DNA of 62,859 bases, counting the filler. It is 12 parts of 12 records of this genome, joined end to end, with 100 filler letters (N's around TTAATTAATTAA, not from the genome) between each part and the next. Parts side by side here need not be neighbours in the genome. Positions count along the whole stretch, not along the records: positions 20,925 to 27,251 come from SRR7504441_6227; 11 more parts are not named here. One strand, 5' to 3'. Shown piece after piece: positions 3,227 through 62,735 of the stretch. The stretch's first letter is position 1, and every line of letters begins with the position of its first letter. The notes beneath the pieces were generated by a model. The model made no database searches. It worked only from the letters and a program-made list of their open reading frames with translations, and had not been told where the DNA came from. The position numbers were made by a program, and so were the translations under genes.

Positions 3227-3326
3227 NNNNNNNNNNNNNNNNNNNNNNNNNNNNNNNNNNNNNNNNNNNNTTAATTAATTAANNNNNNNNNNNNNNNNNN
3301 NNNNNNNNNNNNNNNNNNNNNNNNNN
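3227..3326. other. Artificial contig spacer (first of 11)
   Basis: N-run + TTAATTAATTAA + N-run, 100 nt. Identical spacers at 7706-7805, 17605-17704, 20825-20924, 27252-27351, 32315-32414, 41601-41700, 44964-45063, 49940-50039, 54339-54438 and 58454-58553. Confidence 0.99.
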
Positions 3327-7705: not shown

Positions 7706-7805
7706 NNNNNNNNNNNNNNNNNNNNNNNNNNNNNNNNNNNNNNNNNNNNTTAATTAATTAANNNNNNNNNNNNNNNNNNNNNNNNNNNNNNNNNNNNNNN
7801 NNNNN

Positions 7806-17604: not shown

Positions 17605-17704
17605 NNNNNNNNNNNNNNNNNNNNNNNNNNNNNNNNNNNNNNNNNNNNTTAATTAATTAANNNNNNNNNNNNNNNNNNNNNNNNNNNNNNNNNNNNNNNN
17701 NNNN

Positions 17705-20824: not shown

Positions 20825-20925
20825 NNNNNNNNNNNNNNNNNNNNNNNNNNNNNNNNNNNNNNNNNNNNTTAATTAATTAANNNNNNNNNNNNNNNNNNNN
20901 NNNNNNNNNNNNNNNNNNNNNNNNC

Positions 20926-21174
20926 TTCTGCGAGGACCCGGACAACACCGCGGCCGGCCCCAGCAGCGACCCGCCCGACCACCCGCCCGCCCCGCCGGAG
21001 AGCCACCCCGACGACTTCGAGCGGCTATACGCCGCGTACTCGCGGGGTGGCAGCCCGGCGGAGGGCAGCTGCTCAACGGCAGAGACGGGCGGGGGGCGGG
21101 GGGCATTGTCACAGCAGTCGTCGGCCGCAATGCTGGACAGCTCCGAGGATGATGAGCCGGCGGCCGATTTATAG
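20926..21174 (+). CDS. 3' end of an unknown low-complexity protein
   Basis: FCEDPDNTAAGPSSDPP...SSEDDEPAADL* open from the contig start. Confidence 0.5.
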   Translation, partial: FCEDPDNTAAGPSSDPPDHPPAPPESHPDDFERLYAAYSRGGSPAEGSCSTAETGGGRGALSQQSSAAMLDSSEDDEPAADL

Positions 21175-21547
21175 AGCTGGCTGCCGTGGGGGCCGACGAT
21201 CAGTATCCGTCTGGTGCTGATCGGACTGCAAGGCGACTAGCGAATCAAAGCACCCTGAAGAGCTCGGGAGCAGCCGAGTAGCGCTCGCCCGGGCTGTTGC
21301 AGTGGGTGTGAGCGCACCGCAGCTACGACCGTTGATAGGCATCGCACGAGCAGCGTAGTACTAGAGTAACACTCTAATGTTACACGAATTATACACACGA
21401 CACTCGCGCTATCCGAAACCTTAGTACATGCAATGCAGCACGCTCGAAGTATGATGTACGTACGAGTACCAGCGAGTCAGCGCCGAGAAAAGCACTCGTG
21501 GTGTTTATACGAAAACGCAGCAACTGATCGGCTTGATTACTCACTGA

Positions 21548-22628
21548 TCACATGTGGTCGGCCTCCCCGTTCAAAAGCTTCAAATACAGCTCGCGCGACC
21601 ACGGCTGCTCGCTGTCCAGCTCCACCGCCCCCATAATCCCCTCGTTTGGCCCAGCATCTGCCTCCTGCTTGCTTTGCCAATACTCCCCACTAAGAGCCGT
21701 CATGTCCAGCCCCCTTGCCCTCCCCGTCCGACCAGGCGCGGTCTGCGGCCTCTCGATCCGGCGCGGCACCGCCCCCTGCCCCCCGCGCTCTAAGACCGCC
21801 GGGCCCAACGGAAACCTCCGGTCGGATCTTTGCTGATCGAGCTCGTGGCTGCGGCTCGACAGGAGAACTGTGCTGGGGTCTGCCGATCAGCCCGAGCTGC
21901 CGCTTGGCCACCTGCCGGACCGTAACGGACATTCCAAAAATAGGCCACCTTCCGTTGCTTGGTCCGCCAGCGGGAGAAACGCCTCGCGCCGTGCCACGCA
22001 GGCAGCTTGGTGTCAACCCTGTGCGGGGCGTTCTTAATCATTTCTTGATCCGCTTGGACCTGACCGGCCAGTAACGGCAATAAACGTCCGTTGGGGCCCA
22101 CCTGCCGCCGCAGCGTCCACAAAAAGAGAGAATCGTGCCCGTTTTTGTACGCCAACGGCAGCTTTACATCCGGAGCGGGCTCCTGCAGCCCCACGGTGAG
22201 CTGCACAGCCATGTTTGGCCCAATGCCTTGCGGGCGCGCATTCGCTTGGAGTAGTGCAGCGCCTGCCGGGGCGGGGCGCAGTCTATGCGGGCGGTAGCCT
22301 TCTCGATCAGCCGCTTATGGTTCTTAGACTGTATGCAGGCGTGCTGCATCGCGCCATGGCTAAGGTGGAGCCGAATCGCCAGCGGGCAATCCTTCTTCGA
22401 GAAGGCCGTCAGCTCGAGCGGCACCGACTTCGGCCGGGACGGCTTGCCTCCGGCGGTGGCCGGTCGGCGCTGTTTTATCCGGTCTGCCATCAGCGCCAGC
22501 TGGCCGGCCCAGCCGTGAGGCTCGAGCTCGAGTTCCGTTGGGATAACAGACGGGACCAGATCGTCCGGGTCCAGCGCCCAGGACAGCTCCGACGACCCGG
22601 CCGAGCTCGGCCGGCTGGCACCCGGCAT
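21548..22628 (-). CDS. Uncharacterised protein, possibly ciliary (CFAP97-like repeats), 4 introns
   Basis: Four 37-44 nt introns (one GC-AG) join MPGASRPSS... to ...LLNGEADHM*. Two repeats HKRLIEKATARIDCAPP / DQEMIKNAPHRVDTKLP and an RPQTAP motif. Confidence 0.6.
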
Positions 22629-22675
22629 CGCCCCTCCTCCTCTGCAAGTGCTGCTCCGTGTCCGAATTGGGCTTG

Positions 22676-22682
22676 CAACGGA
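22676..22682. promoter_or_regulatory. YAACGGA motif in divergent promoter
   Basis: CAACGGA centred in the 102-bp gap between ATGs at 22628(-) and 22731(+). Confidence 0.5.
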
Positions 22683-22730
22683 AAGAAAACTCAAAATCCC
22701 CCGGGAGTGTCGACCCCGAGGGGAGCCGCC

Positions 22731-25057
22731 ATGCCGCTGGACGAAGCGAAGCTCTCGGAGGCTTTGGCGCTGGCCAACCGGCACGCCAACCCGGCCCCGC
22801 ACCTCGGGATGAGCCCCGCGCGTGTCGGGGTGCTCGGCGGCGGCCAGCTCGGCCGCATGATCGCGGAGGCCGGGCACAGGCTCGGGGTCCGCGTGGCCGT
22901 CCTGGACCCCGCCGGGCCCGAGTCGCCGGCCGGGCAAGTGGTGAGCCCGGGCATGGCGCTCACCGGCTCGTTCAAGCAGCCGGACAAGATCGCAGAGCTG
23001 GCCGCCGCCGTGGACGTGGTCACGGTGGAGATCGAACACGTTAACTGCGACGCGCTGGCCGAGCTCGAAGCGGCCGGGAAGCGGGTGGCGCCATCCGCGG
23101 CGGTGATCAAGCTGATCCAGGCGCCCCGGGCGGTGCTTTCCGTTGGCCGACCGCTGGTGGCAGGACAAGTTCCTCCAGAAGCAGGCGCTGGCGGCGGTGG
23201 GGATCGCTACGCCCGAGTTCCGCTCGGCCGACAGCCCTGACGAGGCCGCGCAGCACGCCGAGCAGCTCGGATACCCGTTCATGCTCAAGGCACGCACAGG
23301 CAGGCTCGCCCGGTCCCCACGGGCCGAGCCTCAGCCGCAGGAGCTTACGACGGAAGAGGCAACTTCGCGGTTCAGAGCCCTGCGCAGCTGAACGAGGCGT
23401 TCGCGGCCCTCGGGGGTCGGCCGGGCTGGGCTGTCCGTTGGTTACGGCGGGGCCAGGTGAGATGCTGTACATGGAGCAGTGGTGTCCGTTCGAGAAGGAG
23501 CTGGCGGTGATGGTTGTCCGGTCGTCCTCGGGGCAGGCGCGCGCGGGGCCGGTAGCTGGATTTGAGCCCCCCGGGCAGGTGGCTTGCTACCCGGTAGTCG
23601 AGACAGTCCAGCGCGACTCGATCTGCCACCGCACAATGTGCCCCGCCCAGATTCCTCCGAGCGTCGAGCAAGAAGCGAAGGAGGTGAGCAGCTGAGCTCT
23701 GGGTGCTGCTGAGCGGTGGCACAGCTGGCCCTGCGGGTAGTGGAGGAGGCGCTCCCGTCGGCGGTGGGAATATTCGGAGTGGAGCTGTTCTGGTGCGAGC
23801 AGCAGGTTAACATTATTTCCCTAATAAGGAAGGTGTTAAGAGGAAGGTGCAGGGCGTGCTGCTAAACGAGATCGCGCCGCGGCCGCACAATTCAGGCCAC
23901 TACACGATCGAGGCCTGCGGCACCTGCCAGTTCGAGATGCACCTGAGGGCCGTGCTTGGACTCCCTCTCGCCGGCGCTGAGCTGGTGGTCGGTGCTTCGC
24001 TCATGCAGGTGTTGCTTTATTGATGATTATAATGACGATGATTATATACTAAGGAGGTGCCGGTTGCAGAACTGTCTGGGCGCCGAGAGCGAGGAGGCGA
24101 CGATGGCCCCGCTGCACAAGGCGCTGGAGGTGCCGGGCGCCTCGGTGCATTGGTACGCCAAGAAAGGTCGAGCGCTGTGCTAGCGGTCAAGGCTTGACCC
24201 GTGGTCAAGGTCAAGTCAAGCCCGGGCGCAAGATGGGCCACTTCACCGTCTGCGGCGACTCGCCCAGCCAAGTGGCTGCAAGACTCACCGAGGCAACAGC
24301 TGCGCCTCGTGCCGCCGCCGAGTCGTCGGCAGATCGTCGGCCCTGACCCTCAGATCGCGCAGCTGTGCGGGCCCCCCCTTAGCTGCGGGGCCCCCCTTAG
24401 CGGCCGGCCGGAGGTTGCGGTGATCATGGGCTCGGACTCGGACCTGCCCACCATGGCCGACGCCTGCAAGTGCGCCTCCCACCGGATGCGCTGACTATCT
24501 GACACAGAATGCTCGACCGGTTCGGGGTTAAGTACCAAGTGACTATAGTCTCAGCCCACCGGACCCCCCGCCGGCTGATGCAGTTTGCCTCCACTGCTGT
24601 GGCCCGAGGGCTCAAAGTGATCGTCGCCGGGGCCGGCGGAGCAGCGCACCTGCCAGGGATGGTGGCGGCTGTGACGCCTCTGCCAGGTGCCTCCTCATGC
24701 CTGGCTTGGACGAGGTTGCGGTGTGCAGTGATTGGCGTGCCAATCAAGACTTCAGCGCTGAGTGGGGTCGACTCGCTGCACTCGATCGTGCAGATGCCGC
24801 GCGGCGTGCCTGTGGCCACGGTTGCGATCGGGAATGCGACCAACGCAGGGTTGCTCGCGGTCAAGATGATCGGCTGTGGAAATCCGAGGCTGCTAGCTGA
24901 GCTGGAGGCGTATGCGGCCGAGCAGGAGAGTGCAGTGATGGAGAAGGTGCGCCGGGTTGTGGGGGGGGTGATTGTGGGGGAGGTGGGGAGGCTGGAGGGC
25001 GAGGGCTACGAGGAATATTTGCGCGGGATGGAGAATCAAAGCAAAGTGGTGATGTAG
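22731..25057 (+). CDS. ADE2: AIR carboxylase, PurK-PurE fusion, 12 introns
   Basis: [108 protein letters not shown]. Twelve introns of 36-61 nt, four with GC donors. Confidence 0.96.
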
Positions 25058-25384
25058 GGACACTAGGGGACAGAGGCGCTTGCATTGAGTGTTTGGTCGA
25101 GTAATGCAGATGATACTGGATCAGAGCGTCATAGAGCACACTGATTATGGACTCACATACTGTTAGTGTGTCATGCCGGGCTCACATAGCGTACGAGTAG
25201 TAGTTCATTAAAATTAATTACATGGTGATTGTTAAACCTTAAGTTATTGTATCGTTCGATCTCTACATAAAGAGCCCGCTACCTAGTGTATTCACTAGAC
25301 CGGTGTGGTCTTTACAAGTGTGATCGCACTACATCAGTCTACATGTAGTCTACATGTAACCTCATTTCGCATCTTGACATAGCC

Positions 25385-26995
25385 CTACTCAGCTGTCTCC
25401 TCGGCCGCCGCTAGCTTCTCGAGTTTGGCTTGGTTGCTCAGCTCCTTGGCGTGTCGCCGTTTATACGCTTTCTGCGCCAGTAGCACAGCGCCCACCTGGG
25501 TTGGCTCGCACGGCCAGCATAGCGACGGGTTGCACCATCCCTATTGTGTCGCCCATCTTGGAAGGAACGATGTAATGCGAGATCTCCGCACTGCCCGCCC
25601 GCTCACCTCGTGTGCTGCACTGCTGTGCTAACATATACAGCAGTATTATGCACTGTGCTAGTATAATTATACAGCAGTACTGTGCTAGTATATACAGCAG
25701 TATTATGCAGTACCTTGTCAGCTCCGGGCGCTCGACATAATCTTGGAGCAGCACCTGCCCTTATCTTAGAACAATTCCATACTACAGAATACAGAGACTA
25801 TACTATATACTATATACAGCAGTAGACCTGCACGCGGGCCCTTATCTTGTGGAACAAGACCTCTCGCTTCATCACCCCACCTGCCGGACCCGCTCCGACC
25901 ACTAGCACTGCCCAAGACCCTATATACTGGTACACAATACTGTAGTACTAGACCGCACCGGACAGCACAATCCTCTCGGGGGAGACTAGTAGGACCATAT
26001 TCGCACACAGCGTCGCCAGGTAATGTGCAGTCGCGTCCCACACCTCGGCCCCGGCTCACCAACAGGCCCCAACCGACCGCACCGGGTGGTCGTCTGGAAG
26101 ATCCGCCAGTCCCGACGGCGGCACCCCGGCTCTCAACGCTATCGCGCCCGCACAGGCCATTGATTCGGTATCTATCCCGCTGAATGGGGCGGCCGGATTC
26201 GTGGTCGGGGCGGTGTCGCCTGGGAAGGGCTGGACGCACCTGGGCCGGGTCATTAACGGAAATTAACGGCATGTCACAGGTGCCCGCCCTCGGGGTGAAG
26301 CAGCCCATGGACCGTCCGAGAGTTGACCACTAGTCCGACCCCGATCCCGGTGCCAACAGTCACGTACACGCAGGACGTGTCGCCCGGACGCCGGAAATAC
26401 TCAAACTGGCCGATCCAGTCAGAAGGTAACGGAAATCCGTTACCTCGGCCATCGCCGGCGCGTTCACGTCGGTGTCGAACTCGAAAGGCAGATGCTCCAC
26501 CCCTGCCAACGGTAACGGACATCTCCGGCGAGTAACGGACCTTCCCGGAGCGGCGTGAGGATGTCGGTGTTGCGCCATGCCTGCCCCCCGGGGCTGATGT
26601 CCGTTAGGGCCGCAACGGTCACCGCTTTGGGCGTGTTCGTTATGTAGCCGTAACGGGGCGAGGTCTTGTGCAGCTCGACGGGGCCGAACGAGGCCACTCC
26701 GAGCGCGTCAAAGCTCCTGGACCAACGGTAACGGACACCAACGGTAACGGCACCGGGCGTCCAGCCACTGCTTGACCTTGGCCAGCGTCTCGTCCGGGCT
26801 GGTTGTGGGGAAGACGGCGGACTCCACGATGTTAGTGGGGTGCGACACGGCCAGCGCCACCCGCCAGGTGGTGCCGCCCGCCTCCACACCGGCGAACACC
26901 GGCTCCTCGTACCGCCGCACCGGGTCGCACCAGATCACCCGCCCGCCCAGCCCCGAGCCCGCCGCAGCAGCGCAGCCGATCAGTCCTCGCCGCAT
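25385..26995 (-). CDS. ROK-family sugar kinase (fructokinase-like), 10 introns
   Basis: GVEAGGT, FPTTSPDET, GVASFGP, YGYITNTPK, DTDVNAPA, YVTVGTGIG, GLLHPEGGH, SPERIVLSGGV. Introns 26717-26753, 26581-26622, 26503-26540, 26406-26443, 26240-26277, 26044-26082, 25881-25958, 25755-25827, 25591-25713, 25496-25535. Confidence 0.93.
25591..25827 (-). repeat. AT-rich intronic minisatellite shared by adjacent introns
   Basis: TACTGCTGTATA...AGCACAG unit three times in intron 25591-25713; TACTGCTGTATATA also opens intron 25755-25827. Confidence 0.8.
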
Positions 26996-27351
26996 CGCCC
27001 AAAGCCACAATCAGCCGTTATCAGCGAGGTTGGCCTCGAAGCCACGCTCGAAGCTCAACTCCACGCAATATGGCAGTGCGCGCGGCCTGCCCGGTCTGGC
27101 CGGCCGATGAGTACACGTAGCGCTCCACGTGGCTCTTTTGCGGCCCCGGCATGCTCGTGGCCCGCCCCTCTGCCCTGATCTCTGAGGCTTCAAGAAAATC
27201 GCGAAAGCCGGGGGCCAGATTAACTGCAACTAGACGACCGAGCAGGACACGNNNNNNNNNNNNNNNNNNNNNNNNNNNNNNNNNNNNNNNNNNNNTTAAT
27301 TAATTAANNNNNNNNNNNNNNNNNNNNNNNNNNNNNNNNNNNNNNNNNNNN

Positions 27352-54438: not shown

Positions 54439-57400
54439 GTTTTGCAAAACGGTGCACTTGATTCACCTCTCGTTCAGCTATCTGTCATCCCCACCCGTTT
54501 AACAGATGTTAGCGCCAACAGCAGTTCTGCTTCTGCTTTGGATGACATGGATCGACGATACCGGGCATGGTCTGCACACCTTTCTATCCACGCCAGTGAA
54601 GCCCAAGAAGCTAGTATCCATCTTTCAGATGGAGACAGCACTTGGTCTCTCAGTAACAGTGGCGCTCTGCAAATCGGGAAGGGACCGGATGTGGATTCGG
54701 CAATCTCACTTGAGACGCAAGAGTGCTCCATTCAAAGCACCCTGTTCCCTGCATTTGGTTTGAATTCTGATGATGCTAGTGGCGAACAGGCAGTAAGTGC
54801 ATCAGACTGCTTCAGCTCAACTCTCACCGTGCCTGGCGAGCAGACAAGCCTGCACTTTGCCCACGGCCATGAAAACATATTCTCCATCTCACAAGATTTT
54901 AATGAACTAAAACTTGCGTCTGCTGATGACTATTCTTTGCACGTTCGCGATACTCCCGATCAATTGGATATAGCACTGGTTTCAACAATGGAGGCGCATC
55001 TTGTGGTAAGTGCAAATCAAAGTTCGACAGTCTCGCTTCATGCATCAGAAGCTATGTATCAGCTGTCTCATGATTCGTCTTCACAAGCCCTCAGAATACA
55101 CTCATCTCTTGGTGATACTCCCTTTGTCCTCTCACAAGGCACAGACAACAGTGATACATCAGCAGAAATTACCTCCGGCCTCACCATAGAGGCAGCTCCT
55201 GGCGCTGAATCTCAGATTGTTCTAAGCAGAGACCAATTCAACAGCATGTGGAAAATACGTGGCAGGCAAGACACGTTGCATTTTGCCAATGGAGATTCAA
55301 GCGCACCGCTCATCTGGCATTCACCGCTAACTGGCAATCGCACTGAGCTCGTCATCAGCTCGACTGGGCACGCTGCAGCCTTCCTTGGTGGCTCTGAAAG
55401 TAGTGTGACACTTGGAAAACGTGATCAATTCACCCTCAAGAGCGCTGATGGCAAAATGGCATTAGCCCGAAATAAGATTCCCCTCATGCATGTGGATACA
55501 GACCTGGTTAGCGACACACGGTCGCTTGCGGTGGTTTCTCCCAAGGATAACGATCCTGTTTCGCTTGTGTTGGTCTCCGGGAGTTCAAGCTCTAGCATCA
55601 GAGCTCGGGATGCTTCGCAGCTGCAGATTGGCCAGGGATTAAAGCTACACTCAGAACCGGTCGCTGGACAGAGTCAAAAAGATGCCTGGGATACGATCCT
55701 CTCTGTAGAGTCATCGCCTTCTGGACGACCGAGGCTTGAATTGGTCAGTGGTGCAGGCGGCTCGACCTTAGAATTGGACAGTGTCAAGCACACACTACAG
55801 GTGGGTCCAGCAGGGGCTGCCGACACACTTACCATAGGAGGTCTGAATCGTCAGAAGTCTGAATCGTCAGACAATGTGCGGCTGGCAAGTCAAGACACAG
55901 GAGCAAATGTAATTCTCCAGGCTGCAGATCGCGCCACTGTGAACATTGGCAAGCATATGCGACTCCAAGTAGATGCAGATGGTTTGAATATGATTTCGGA
56001 GGGACAAATACACCTGAAACCTAGAGGCCTTGACCTCAAAGTGGAGCACCTAGACCTTTCGGGAATGCAGTTGCAGCGTCATGGCATTGCAAGCACATTG
56101 TCAGATTATACCGCTTGGAGAGCAGGTGGTGGTTTCGACTTTGCGACTGGTGGCGTTCTTGACACTTCCAGTCGCCGCCTTCGGGTGAGCAGTGTCACCA
56201 AGACGCTACTGGAGGCTGACCAGCTCCGTTTTCTTGTTGGGTTCAACATACCAATCAGCCTGGAAGGACCCATGCAACTAGTGTCAAATTCACCGCAGAT
56301 CCGAGATCAAGTGTTGTCATCTGGACCAATTACAGCAAAGAGCGACCAAATCCTGGTACGTGCTCGCGACCAGCTTGAGTTGCACGCTGCAACTGATCTA
56401 ATGATCCAAGGAACCTCCCTGTCCCTCCATCCTGGTTTGAACGCAAATGTAGCAATCACGGGTAGACTCCTTGTTGGAGACAGGGAGAGCGGAGTGAACT
56501 TCGAGGGTTCTCGCATCCTGTCCGAGGATCGCCTCCACGACTTTGAGTTTCGGTCTGCCGGTGGTCTGCACTTTGGGACCGGTAAAGCGACCTTGCAAGC
56601 AAAGCTCACAGGCAGTGAGCTCCAAGTCAGTGGGGAGCCTCGATTTTCTGCAGGGCAACTAGCTGACCTGAGTGCAGGCCAGATAGAAATTGATGCTGAG
56701 ATTGATACCGGCCCAATACGTTTCGCTGGAGAAAAGGTCACATTGAATGACCATCACAGTACAAAGGCGATGCATCTTACAGGAGGGAATCGCCTCGCAC
56801 TCAAAAGCACAGCAGATTCCTTTATAAATGCAAATGCTGCACTTTTGTCTGGTCAAAGCGAATCCAGCATAGCAGCGCCAACTATCCGTGTTCGAGCTCG
56901 ATCTCACAATTCCCTCATCAAAATTCCTTCTTTACTTCGAAATGCTGACAGTCGTGTGGAGGTCGATGGTACAAGTGTGCAATCGGCTGAAAAGGCTCAT
57001 CTGAGCTCAGATCGGGGATTTATGATCCGTTCAGAGGCAGCAGTTAACATTTTCAGCACAGAATTGTCGACACGTGCCCAAGATATAAGATTGAAAGCAA
57101 CTGCAATCAAGTCATCTACTGGTATTAACCAAGACCTCGCTGCTGTGCTGCAAGGAGGCCACGTGCGAGCTGATGATGTAATCATGGATGGCTCGGGTCT
57201 ACATCTAAACAGCCCAAAAGGCGCTTCTTTCACATCAAATCATGACATTACAGCAAGAGCAGAGACTGTGCATTACGATACAGATGAACTGGTGTTGGAG
57301 AGTGGTGAGCACATGTCAATTGCTGCAGCCAGCCTCAAGCTGTCTGCGAATGGCATTGAACTCCAAAGCTCTGAGGGTATAACCATTGATAGCATCGTCA

Positions 57401-58453
57401 TGGACGGAAGCAGGCTTGAAACAGAAACAATCTCACACAAGAGAGTCTCCATCAAATCTGAGAACGAGGCCGCAGTTGCAAGCAGCAAGGACTTGCAAGT
57501 GAGCGCTGGCAATCTACTGGTCGAGAGCAGCGACATCAACGTTCGTGCCCCAATGGTGACGACAGAACACTATGTTTTAATCAAGGAAGCACTCTTCTTG
57601 GATGGTCGAACAGTCGAGACGTTGGACAAAATGAAGGGGCTGGACATTCGAGGAGGCAGCACTTTACTTTCTGGACACCACCTCGGAGGTTCAGCGCAAA
57701 CAATCGAAGCGGTTGCCAACGAACGCATCACACTAGCTGCCCACGGCCTCTCTTCAGAAAGTGGTCAGCTCGAGGTATTGACAAGCGGCGGCGCCCTGAA
57801 AGTAGATGGTAGTCTGTTTCAAGGTTCGCAAGTCAAGCAAGTGAACCGTATCGCTGCCTCTAACCTTGATATTAAGTCTTCAGAGGCAGCAATCCTGTCC
57901 TCAGACAGCATGTTCGTTCAATCCTCAAGGGTAGTAATTGAAGCAGAGAATGGCGTTGAGCTCAAGTCGACGCGTGTGAAACTGACCGATTCAGGTGTAG
58001 CTGTATCTGGACATCTGCTGTTAGATGCCAACACACTGTCCTCACAGACTGGACTGAATCTCGATAGCACCCATCTACAGCTCATGGCACCAGAAATACA
58101 AATGCATGCGCCCTTAAACCTGAAAAGCGACAGAAGGACTCTGCTCTCAAGTCCATCATGGGAACTGATCAGTTCTAAAGAGAGTATCATCCTGCAGAGT
58201 GGGCCTGGGCCAACTCTCTTAGATGGCAACACCAAAGTGCAAGGAGGACGAATAATTGGCGGGACAGAGGTAGCGCCATGGCGACTAAAATCCAAAAGTG
58301 GAGTCACTATTACAGCTCCTGAGATGATAAAGCTTGATGGTCAGAGCATCCTTGTGGGTGATATGACCTCGAATTTAGAACTAGCGTCAAGAGGACGTAT
58401 TCTAATTGAGGGCGACATGACCCACTTTGCATTGGGAGGCGGGAGCCTGAACG
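54439..58453 (+). CDS. Large beta-strand-rich repetitive protein, open at both ends (>1330 aa)
   Basis: Uninterrupted 4-kb frame filling the contig; Ser/Gly/Leu/Ile-rich short alternating strands; only 2 Cys; lower GC and no introns. Confidence 0.8.
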
Positions 58454-61968: not shown

Positions 61969-62735
61969 TCACTGGAGCGCGTCCATCTGCTCCTGGATGG
62001 TCTCGAGGTCGTTGAACAGCTTGGACAGCTTCTCATGCCCTAGCTCCAAAAGCAGCCGCTCGCTCCCACCCTCCGGCCGCCTGAGCCCCAGGTGCAACAC
62101 ACCCACCGGCTCCCTCCGCTCGGCCGAGCCGCTGTCGGCCACTCGCACGTGCAGGTCCCAGTTGACCGTTTCGAGCGCCGTGCTCCCCCCCAGGCTCTTG
62201 TCGCGCAGCCCGGTCAGGGCCCCGGCCGAGCCCTCGACCCATACCGCCTCCAGCACCGCAACTCGAGCCGGCGACAGCCCGGTCTCGGCCAACGGACCTG
62301 CCTACGGCTCGCACACGCCTGCCTGGCCCCGCACCCTCCAAACTGGCCTGGCCCTCGTAGGCTGCGCGCTCGAACAAGTAGGCGCACCCGTCGAGCACTG
62401 CCGCCACCCTGAGCAGCCCGGGGCCGGGCGCGGACACCGGAGTCGAGCCCGGCGGGGGGCAGGCCGAGCATCTCCATCAGCTTGGCCCGCTCCTGCTCGC
62501 TGAACGGCCCAGCCTCCTGCGCCAGGCTCGGGGGCCGGGTGCGGGCGGGGGAGGTACCTCCGGCAGGCTGCTGAGCACGCGCTGGGCGATCGGCTGGAGA
62601 GTGGCGTCGGGGATCTCGTTGAGCAGCCCCACCAGCTCAGCCAGACTGCCCCCCACCCTCCAACCTGCCGCCCGGGCCGGCCCACCGAGAGGTCTTGGCG
62701 AAGAGAGGAGGCTCGCCCGGAGCTTGTTCGGCCAT
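61969..62735 (-). CDS. COMMD10: COMM domain protein, COMMD10-like, several introns
   Basis: LETVNWDLHV...PVGVLHLGL...LLLELGHEKLSKLFNDLETIQEQMDAL; N-terminal FSEQE.AKL and YLFERAAY. Confidence 0.85.

Follow-up and report, generated by a model that had tools for sequence, protein, structure and literature searches.

Clustering of a YAACGG motif in promoter-proximal micro-introns of three neighbouring genes: a possible local intron family

The origin of new spliceosomal introns is an old open question. Transposon introners were reportedly described by Huff et al. in 2016, similar neighbouring introns in Oikopleura are said to have been found by Denoeud et al. in 2010, and repair-linked intron gains in Daphnia and minor introns in Physarum were reportedly the subject of work by Li et al. 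in 2009 and Larue et al. in 2021, respectively. Known introner families are longer than the introns considered here, dispersed over the genome and mostly derived from transposons. In Micromonas RCC299, the IE-C introners have an average length of 67 nt and are described as sharing a conserved branch-point motif (PMC3879977). Here, a stretch of DNA of 62,859 nucleotides, filler included (the window), was analyzed for clustering of the pentamer CCGTT/AACGG and its extended form YAACGG (pyrimidine + AACGG) in very short introns of a fructokinase-like gene (FRK) and of two genes on the same contig, G2 and ADE2. A family of ~38-nt introns with YAACGG was not found described in the literature searched, and the locus may be a snapshot of intron birth.

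The window is composed of 12 contigs, each 3-10 kb long, with N44-TTAATTAATTAA-N44 linkers between them (at positions 3227-3326, 7706-7805, 17605-17704, and eight others). Since it is a pseudo-molecule of joined contigs, neighbourhood across linkers is meaningless. The motif-intron locus is a single contig of 6.3 kb (20925-27251), which comprises ~10% of the bases of the window and on which, read at the DNA level, the whole case rests. The domains encoded in the window (BRCT, La, Kelch, TIR-kinase, COMM, and ELO) mark its source as a eukaryote. Third codon positions in its genes are ~80% GC, many of its introns are 36-43 nt long and, over exon 1, the closest named relatives of ADE2 are from brown algae and haptophytes (60-64% identity).

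In the 61,891 non-N bases of the window, CCGTT/AACGG occurred 112 times, which placed it at rank 234 of the 512 strand-symmetric pentamers. Its copies were not uniformly spread. Positions 26240-26753 held 14 copies, 13 of which were located inside five introns of FRK, with one (26652) in the 321 nt of intervening exon. The five introns total 193 nt (37 + 42 + 38 + 38 + 38), for which the window-wide rate predicts 0.35 copies (Poisson P ~1e-16, a value that treats as independent copies that are partly in tandem and thus not independent). An earlier note on this DNA had counted 13 copies in these 193 nt, and every count was exact. When all 512 pentamers were compared by their densest cluster in any 514-nt window, the two strongest, CGTTA (11 copies vs 0.27 expected) and AACGG (14 vs 0.93), both mapped to 26240-26753; CGTTA, which ranked first, overlaps the AACGG motif. 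Clustering was also regional, as all nine copies of CCGTTAC in the window and 27 of its 56 copies of YAACGG were located on contig 20925-27251. Within this contig, 19 YAACGG copies were found in 1,224 nt of intron, where the background rate predicts ~0.64, while 3,735 nt of exon contained four copies (1.95 expected; P 0.13, not above background) and 1,368 nt of intergenic sequence another four. All 19 intronic copies were of the YAACGG form, as compared to only 29 of the 80 CCGTT/AACGG copies on the other contigs. The motif cluster is genuine, with strong statistical backing, and base composition does not explain it.

The structure of FRK (25445..26995, minus strand; ATG at 26995; ~10 introns) was obtained with a protein-to-genome spliced aligner, blind to the motif, that was run with four ROK/fructokinase homologues. 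Homologues, as well as FRK exons 1 and 5, matched the ScrK model (NCBIfam NF045550), below its cutoff, and based on these matches and on the homologues FRK was named a ROK-family, fructokinase-like kinase. All five motif introns have the GT-AG ends of U2-type spliceosomal introns. Three of them were placed identically by all four homologues: intron 1 (26717..26753, 37 nt), with four sense copies arranged as two tandem 16-nt units, intron 2 (26581..26622, 42 nt), with one sense and one antisense copy, and intron 5 (26240..26277, 38 nt), with two sense copies (CCGTTAAT twice). Intron 4 (26406..26443, 38 nt), in which an antisense copy in the donor GTAACGG is paired with a sense copy, was placed by three of the four. 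Intron 3 (26503..26540, 38 nt; three sense copies, donor GTCCGTTAC, TTAC adenosine at -11) was placed by two, with 26444-26516 and 26495-26520 chosen instead by the others. Introns 1 and 3 have in common a 16-nt string with the tandem CCGTTACCGTTGG unit. Spliced alignment also indicated five introns farther downstream, at 26044-26082, 25881-25958, ~25755-25827, 25591-25713, and ~25496-25535, again on the minus strand.

The spliced FRK translation of 350 amino acids aligned end to end with homologues (BLASTP; P0143: 50% identity, E 7e-101), and junctions 1-5 fell in conserved, gap-free alignment columns. Four of the five segments, being 37 or 38 nt long, would shift the reading frame if kept. 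Intron 2, at 42 nt a multiple of 3 without in-frame stop, keeps the frame, so that the evidence for its removal is the homologue alignment. The alternative that the segments are coding insertions or assembly artefacts could appeal to this intron, to a frame-neutral and stop-free intron of G2 (intron 2, see below) and to a fragmentary assembly of small contigs. Against the four frame shifts, the collinearity of the spliced protein with its homologues across gap-free junctions, the GT-AG or GC-AG ends and the recurrence of the 36-43-nt class in ADE2 and in genes for a DegT aminotransferase and a COMM-domain protein, it is scarcely credible. Judged by these alignments, the five segments are real spliceosomal micro-introns whose removal is needed to restore the protein. 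The earlier note had described five consecutive introns, tandem units common to 26717-26753 and 26503-26540, and a perfect 10-bp hairpin over a donor site; all three descriptions held, with a weaker case for 26503-26540 as an intron (two of four homologues).

The same motif was found in introns of the two other genes. G2 (21548-22628, minus strand; product unassigned) has four introns, defined by continuity of the open reading frame (ORF) only. Its intron 2 (22060..22101, 42 nt; one sense and one antisense copy, TTAC adenosine at -13), likewise defined by ORF reading only, is a multiple of 3 without in-frame stop and is a candidate intron. With intron 3 (21912..21948, 37 nt; TGTCCGTTAC with an adenosine at -12) removed, the frame continues uninterrupted as far as the stop at 21548, while intron 4 (21776..21815, 40 nt) has the donor GTTTCCGTTGG and is again indicated by ORF continuity. 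ADE2 (22731-25054, plus strand) has 12-13 introns according to alignment with five homologues. Its intron 1 (23121..23163, 43 nt, GC-AG) contains TTTCCGTTGG, with its sole internal adenosine (in CCGAC) at -14, and was placed by all five homologues. Intron 3 (23416..23456, 41 nt) contains TGTCCGTTGGTTAC, with its sole internal adenosine at -13, and was placed by three; the interval chosen by the other two, 23433-23461, has the motif inside as well. The motif thus occurs in three G2 and two ADE2 introns, all on contig 20925-27251, where the earlier note had reported it.

In total, 10 of the 26 introns of the contig carry the motif (FRK 1-5, G2 2-4, and ADE2 1 and 3). As the other 16 do without it, the motif is not needed for splicing, and a general splice signal was ruled out. 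On the transcribed strand, intronic copies read CCGTTR in a ratio of 16:3 (P 0.004). A sense copy is present in all ten motif introns, though ADE2 (plus strand) is transcribed in the opposite direction to FRK and G2 (minus strand). The ten introns are located 242-813 nt from the ATG of their gene (distances counted from the ATG, not from the transcription start site). Within 860 nt of the ATG, 10 of 13 introns carried the motif, as compared to none of 13 beyond this post hoc cut (Fisher 1e-4; Mann-Whitney 2e-4). On the DNA, the motif introns thereby form two zones, one around the divergent G2/ADE2 promoter and one beside the FRK promoter.

Introns on other contigs served as controls. The small COMM-domain gene (61969-62735, minus strand) has three introns of 37-41 nt in its first 400 nt, based on ORF continuity and a Pfam match in the last exon; YAACGG also occurs 12 nt ahead of its ATG. 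In the DegT aminotransferase gene, four introns were indicated by successive exons that match Pfam profile positions 36-72, 75-197, and 230-262. The motif was absent from the 5'-proximal introns of both genes (0/3 and 0/4, together 0/7; Fisher 0.003). It was also absent from all 21 micro-introns predicted ab initio on the other contigs, as compared to 10 of 26 on the motif contig (P 0.001). This second control is made up of predictions only: 28 of 97 predicted introns passed flank-score and frameshift filters, and the exon-chaining parser behind them over-joins genes and sometimes picks antisense frames. A homologue search with an HRDC-encoding ORF, made for further control introns, returned only six HRDC-only proteins and was of no use.

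These distributions bear on the possibility that the introns have neither origin nor function in common, and that independent slippage runs of the hexamer, combined with chance in a small sample, produced the pattern. The tandem copies in FRK introns 1, 3, and 5 would indeed reduce the 13 FRK copies to about five events, and GC-rich introns can reach high pair scores by chance. Slippage within single introns is nevertheless a very unlikely account of ten introns in three genes that hold the block where ~0.64 copies are expected, of the contrast with the 21 predicted introns elsewhere, and of a block that lies on the same strand, with R at +1 and T at -3, in all ten.

Within the introns, the position of the block was variable (donor, middle, or branch site). 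In five introns, a TTAC adenosine is located at -13, -11, -12, -13, and -13 from the acceptor, and FRK intron 1 and ADE2 intron 3 have no other usable adenosine; the only two internal adenosines of FRK intron 1 are those of TTAC, at -13 and -29. Motif-less introns with a single adenosine have it at -12 to -14, in TGAG, TGAT, or CGAC. Since the positions match, the TTAC part is very probably the branch site, its use being deduced from spacing and context. The CCGTTGG variant, which has no adenosine, cannot be a branch site. In three introns (FRK 2, FRK 3, and G2 4), the block is at or beside the donor.

The sense-strand bias, the placement of TTAC at -11 to -13 in five introns with no other candidate adenosine in two of them, and the block at the donor of three might together reflect a signal at the RNA level, either a variant branch-site context or a splicing enhancer for an RNA-binding protein, used by a subset of micro-introns. 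As an explanation of the whole cluster this appears quite unlikely, as 16 of the 26 contig introns and all those examined elsewhere do without the block, whose position varies and whose CCGTTGG form lacks the adenosine, and a splicing signal leaves its restriction to one contig and to 5' regions unexplained. A common structure was likewise not found. The inverted repeat over the donor of FRK intron 4 (26424..26445; read directly) is a perfect 10 + 10 nt with a 2-nt spacer. The RNA of this intron alone was predicted to form a 7-bp stem with a 4-nt loop (-12.6 kcal/mol, z -2.6), and its flanks increased the predicted stability to -23.2 kcal/mol (z -3.6). It was the only one of the five FRK motif introns that folded better than shuffled sequences.

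Start codons were estimated for 20 genes to investigate YAACGG upstream of coding regions. The 100 nt preceding each of these start codons, 2,000 nt in total, held six unique sites, as compared to 1.05 expected (P 7.5e-4). Addition of the TCCGTTGC copy (22675..22682, minus strand) in the 102-nt spacer between the divergent start codons of G2 and ADE2, after correction of these ATGs, gave seven upstream sites (P 1e-4). A YAACGG copy (27015..27020, plus strand) is located ~25 nt upstream of the FRK ATG. Upstream copies occurred in both orientations without bias. Within the limits of the start-codon estimates, this enrichment agrees with the designation "promoter motif" in the earlier note. AACGG is the core of the plant mitosis-specific activator (MSA) element, consensus (T/C)C(T/C)AACGG(T/C)(T/C)A, which is described as bound by 3R-MYB factors (PMC5405339). 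The intronic copies do not match the full consensus: T occupies -3 in 10/10 introns, and two core-adjacent positions are mostly T or G/T and not purines.

The intronic copies might be DNA sites bound by a Myb-type factor and housed in introns as the sole non-coding sequence beyond the start, from where they would act on ADE2, FRK, and G2 at promoter-proximal positions in a manner akin to intron-mediated enhancement (IME). Such a role would account for the exclusive YAACGG form of the 19 intronic copies (29/80 off the contig), for ten carriers within 242-813 nt of the ATG against none of 13 distal introns, and for the enrichment upstream of start codons. It would also be in line with the MSA core bound by 3R-MYB (PMC5405339) and with stimulating introns of Arabidopsis, which are described as working only within ~1 kb of the start (10.1101/269852). 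DNA sites would not, however, be expected to show a 16:3 strand bias in which each of the ten introns has a sense copy. Promoter copies show no such bias, and the intron effect in Arabidopsis is reported to work in either orientation (PMC3355757). COMM has an upstream copy, yet none of its three proximal introns, nor any of the four of DegT, carries the motif. On other contigs, the zone from -200 to +860 was not enriched in YAACGG (11 of 29 sites in 27% of sequence; P 0.125). Moreover, in a single intron of 37 nt, four copies spaced 6 nt apart leave no room for simultaneous occupancy, the three carrier genes are neighbours without functional relation, and agreement with the extended MSA consensus is partial. 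On balance, carriage of Myb-type sites by micro-introns, the other suggestion of the earlier note, is considered possible but rather doubtful as the sole origin of the pattern.

We tentatively propose, as a plausible reading that falls somewhat short of probable, that the ten introns belong to a local, splice-competent micro-intron family across FRK, G2, and ADE2. Such a family would account for the confinement of the motif to a single contig and for the strand rule, shared flanks, tandem units, and branch-site placement, and it has precedents in the short IE-C introners of Micromonas (PMC3879977) and in fungal sister introns with seamless insertion (PMC8469720). In an alignment of the ten introns, an invariant T at -3 and two variable positions were followed by CCGTT and then R (A or G) at +1. 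FRK introns 1 and 3 gave the top score (34) of 1,081 intron pairs, ADE2 introns 1 and 3 were identical over 18 of 21 nt (score 27), and the 3' end of G2 intron 2 resembled the 5' half of FRK intron 3 (82% of 22 nt). Sequence sharing by neighbouring introns, a habit of this locus, is not unique to the YAACGG motif, since the repeat TATACAGCAGTA is confined to the AT-rich FRK introns 8 and 9, with four exact copies (25634-25645, 25668-25679, 25691-25702, and 25813-25824). A 9-mer, TTTCCGTTG, was present in the promoter that G2 and ADE2 share, as well as in a single intron to either side of it. The earlier note had suggested a locally spreading intron family that derives from the promoter element. 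The first part of this suggestion is now better supported, by the single contig, the shared flanks and the strand rule, while derivation from the promoter element is suggested only.

Several observations weigh against a family. Top pairs apart, mean pair scores were alike between classes (11.7, 11.6, 11.1, and 11.6), and an unrelated pair from two other contigs scored 28, which indicates that most "family" pairs score no higher than GC-rich background can. Among 35 introns, neither target-site duplications nor terminal inverted repeats were found beyond the AG|GT consensus; one 8-nt junction repeat, at G2 intron 3, was not significant over this number of introns. There are ten members only, all on one of the 12 contigs in the window. 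Copying alone does not predict a strict 5' position and an exclusive YAACGG form, which fit a regulatory role. As CCGTTGG lacks an adenosine, a role as branch point would not extend to the whole block. CCGUUAC, moreover, pairs poorly with the universal GUAGUA of U2, a point reasoned rather than computed.

If the ten introns are a family, its core would be a ~10-nt block, T-(G/T)-T-CCGTT-R-(C/G), on the transcribed strand. Intron sequence would have been copied over short genomic distances by intron duplication, by conversion between neighbouring introns, or by break repair templated on nearby sequence; their common descent and the route of copying are inferred. Slippage may subsequently have multiplied the block within single introns. 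Inside coding sequence, only the splice-competent orientation would survive, as with introners. The block itself would perform splicing work, TTAC providing an adenosine 11-13 nt from the acceptor in introns poor in adenosine, at a place taken by TGAG, TGAC, or CGAC in motif-less introns. The block includes the YAACGG hexamer found upstream of start codons, and each of the ten introns is promoter-proximal, so that a promoter element may have given rise to the family, or the family may simply be tolerated near promoters. Family and regulatory role can thus be combined, in the form of a family seeded from the promoter element. In a bolder version, which seems unlikely, no smaller self-sufficient intron family would yet have been seen (~38 nt), and it would multiply only over a few kb near promoters after seeding by a Myb-type promoter element. 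In that version, one block would be both a DNA site for factor binding and an RNA branch site, and copying by break repair templated on nearby sequence could account for tandem units and inverted pairs as well as for the absence of target-site duplications.

Three other explanations were rejected. Intron ends do not repeat exon flanks, as tandem duplication of exon sequence (the AGGT model) would have it. The FRK introns are spaced at 134, 80, 97, and 166 nt, which does not correspond to nucleosome-linker spacing. U12-type introns have the donor consensus RTATCCTT and the branch-site consensus TCCTTAAC, 10-15 nt from the acceptor. None of the ten donors matched RTATCCTT, while TCCGTTAC, found at -11 to -13 in four introns, matches six of eight positions of the branch consensus. 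Rfam and tRNA scans of the window returned nothing, and no U12, U6atac, or other small nuclear RNA gene.

Searches for the locus in other organisms gave the following results. In an aquatic metagenome (run X1, share 0.05), short contigs were 90-99% identical to parts of contig 20925-27251, which points to a close relative living in the sampled habitat. The X1 pieces seen included none over FRK introns 1-5 and no joints; one piece crosses the ADE2 intron at 23537-23578, with two differences. A metagenome scan with G2 exon 1 gave one locus (L001, 70% GC) that, without blastn or tblastx similarity to the window, was rejected as a chance match. A homologue search with FRK exon 1 gave no matches, and read-through ORF fragments among 150 FRK matches showed no sign of the motif in introns of relatives. 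In the region of FRK exon 6 (26100-26240), some homologues have a cysteine-rich CPFHxxC motif that FRK and several others do not have; FRK may belong to a subfamily without the metal site of this motif.

Other features of the introns and genes in the window were also recorded. GC-AG introns were frequent: three ADE2 introns (23121-23163, 23300-23340, and 23537-23578) had GC-AG ends in 5/5 alignments, a fourth (~24293-24332) is likely and one in G2 (22183-22226) probable. The usual share of GC-AG introns in eukaryotes is ~1%, and the rate in ADE2 and G2 is far higher. In 16 of 35 introns, the following exon starts with GT, which results in many AG|GT junctions at both ends. The stretch between branch adenosine and acceptor is G-rich and not pyrimidine-rich, and CGGGGGGCAG ends three introns on two contigs. 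Intron density was uneven from gene to gene. ADE2 has 12-13 introns and FRK ~10, while long uninterrupted ORFs encode an EF-hand protein (1,104 aa), an HRDC protein (603), a pyruvate kinase (476), a lipase (394), and an epimerase (363), the intron-free gene of the latter adjoining the DegT gene with its four introns. At 54439-58452 (plus strand), an ORF of 1,338 aa without Pfam match fills a whole contig; with a GC fraction at third codon positions of 0.46, as compared to ~0.8 elsewhere, it may be a foreign or mobile element.

The locus would offer a compact, recent-looking test case for local intron copying, or for introns being recruited to carry regulatory sites. If the regulatory reading were true, it would exemplify intron-mediated control where introns, in this protist, are extremely short and each base also has to serve splicing. 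Comparison with described systems places it close to several of them without full correspondence to any. Like introners (IE-C; PMC3879977, reviewed in PMC11282704), the ten introns are short, unevenly distributed, and provided with their own splice signals, and appear to resemble one another at unrelated positions. As in IE-C, a conserved motif contains the branch point, here a putative one (PMC3879977). They also share with introners a single orientation relative to transcription (16:3 copies; 10/10 introns). In contrast to the 67-nt average of IE-C (PMC3879977), motif introns measure 37-43 nt. Unlike introners, they number ten in the window, on one 6.3-kb contig and all within ~800 nt of the gene start, and their similarity is confined to a block of 10 to 21 nt; neither target-site duplications nor terminal inverted repeats were found.

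Fungal introner-like elements and the sister (stw)introns of Hypoxylaceae are likewise described as related introns that are seamless and, in these sources, without flanking duplications (PMC8469720, PMC3609843). Internal symmetry (FRK intron 4; inverted motif pairs in FRK 2 and G2 2) and decay towards ordinary introns are further resemblances (PMC8469720). The fungal elements are, however, 90-200 nt long, have inverted repeats of 45-55 nt and are dispersed over genomes (PMC8469720), while a significant hairpin is present here in only one of five FRK motif introns. The confinement of the motif to introns within ~1 kb of the start resembles plant IME signals (10.1101/269852), which differ in motif and are described as orientation-free, in contrast to the strand-biased copies found here (PMC3355757). 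With the MSA element, or c-Myb site YAACGG, the locus shares pyrimidine + AACGG in 19/19 intronic copies and an occurrence upstream of starts in both orientations (PMC5405339); the flanks of the 11-nt consensus fit in part only, and intronic location and strand bias are different (PMC5405339). As among the BOC1 introns of Mamiellophyceae, very short introns crowd some genes while others have none (PMC3879977). BOC1 introns are described as <75 nt, AT-rich (<43% GC) and, in that source, without a shared motif (PMC3879977); the ten motif introns fall within this length but have GC contents of 0.53-0.77, and genes here differ in intron density even within a contig. The simplest reading of the locus, which has a possible link to the promoter element, is as a variant of repeated introns that is very short and very local.

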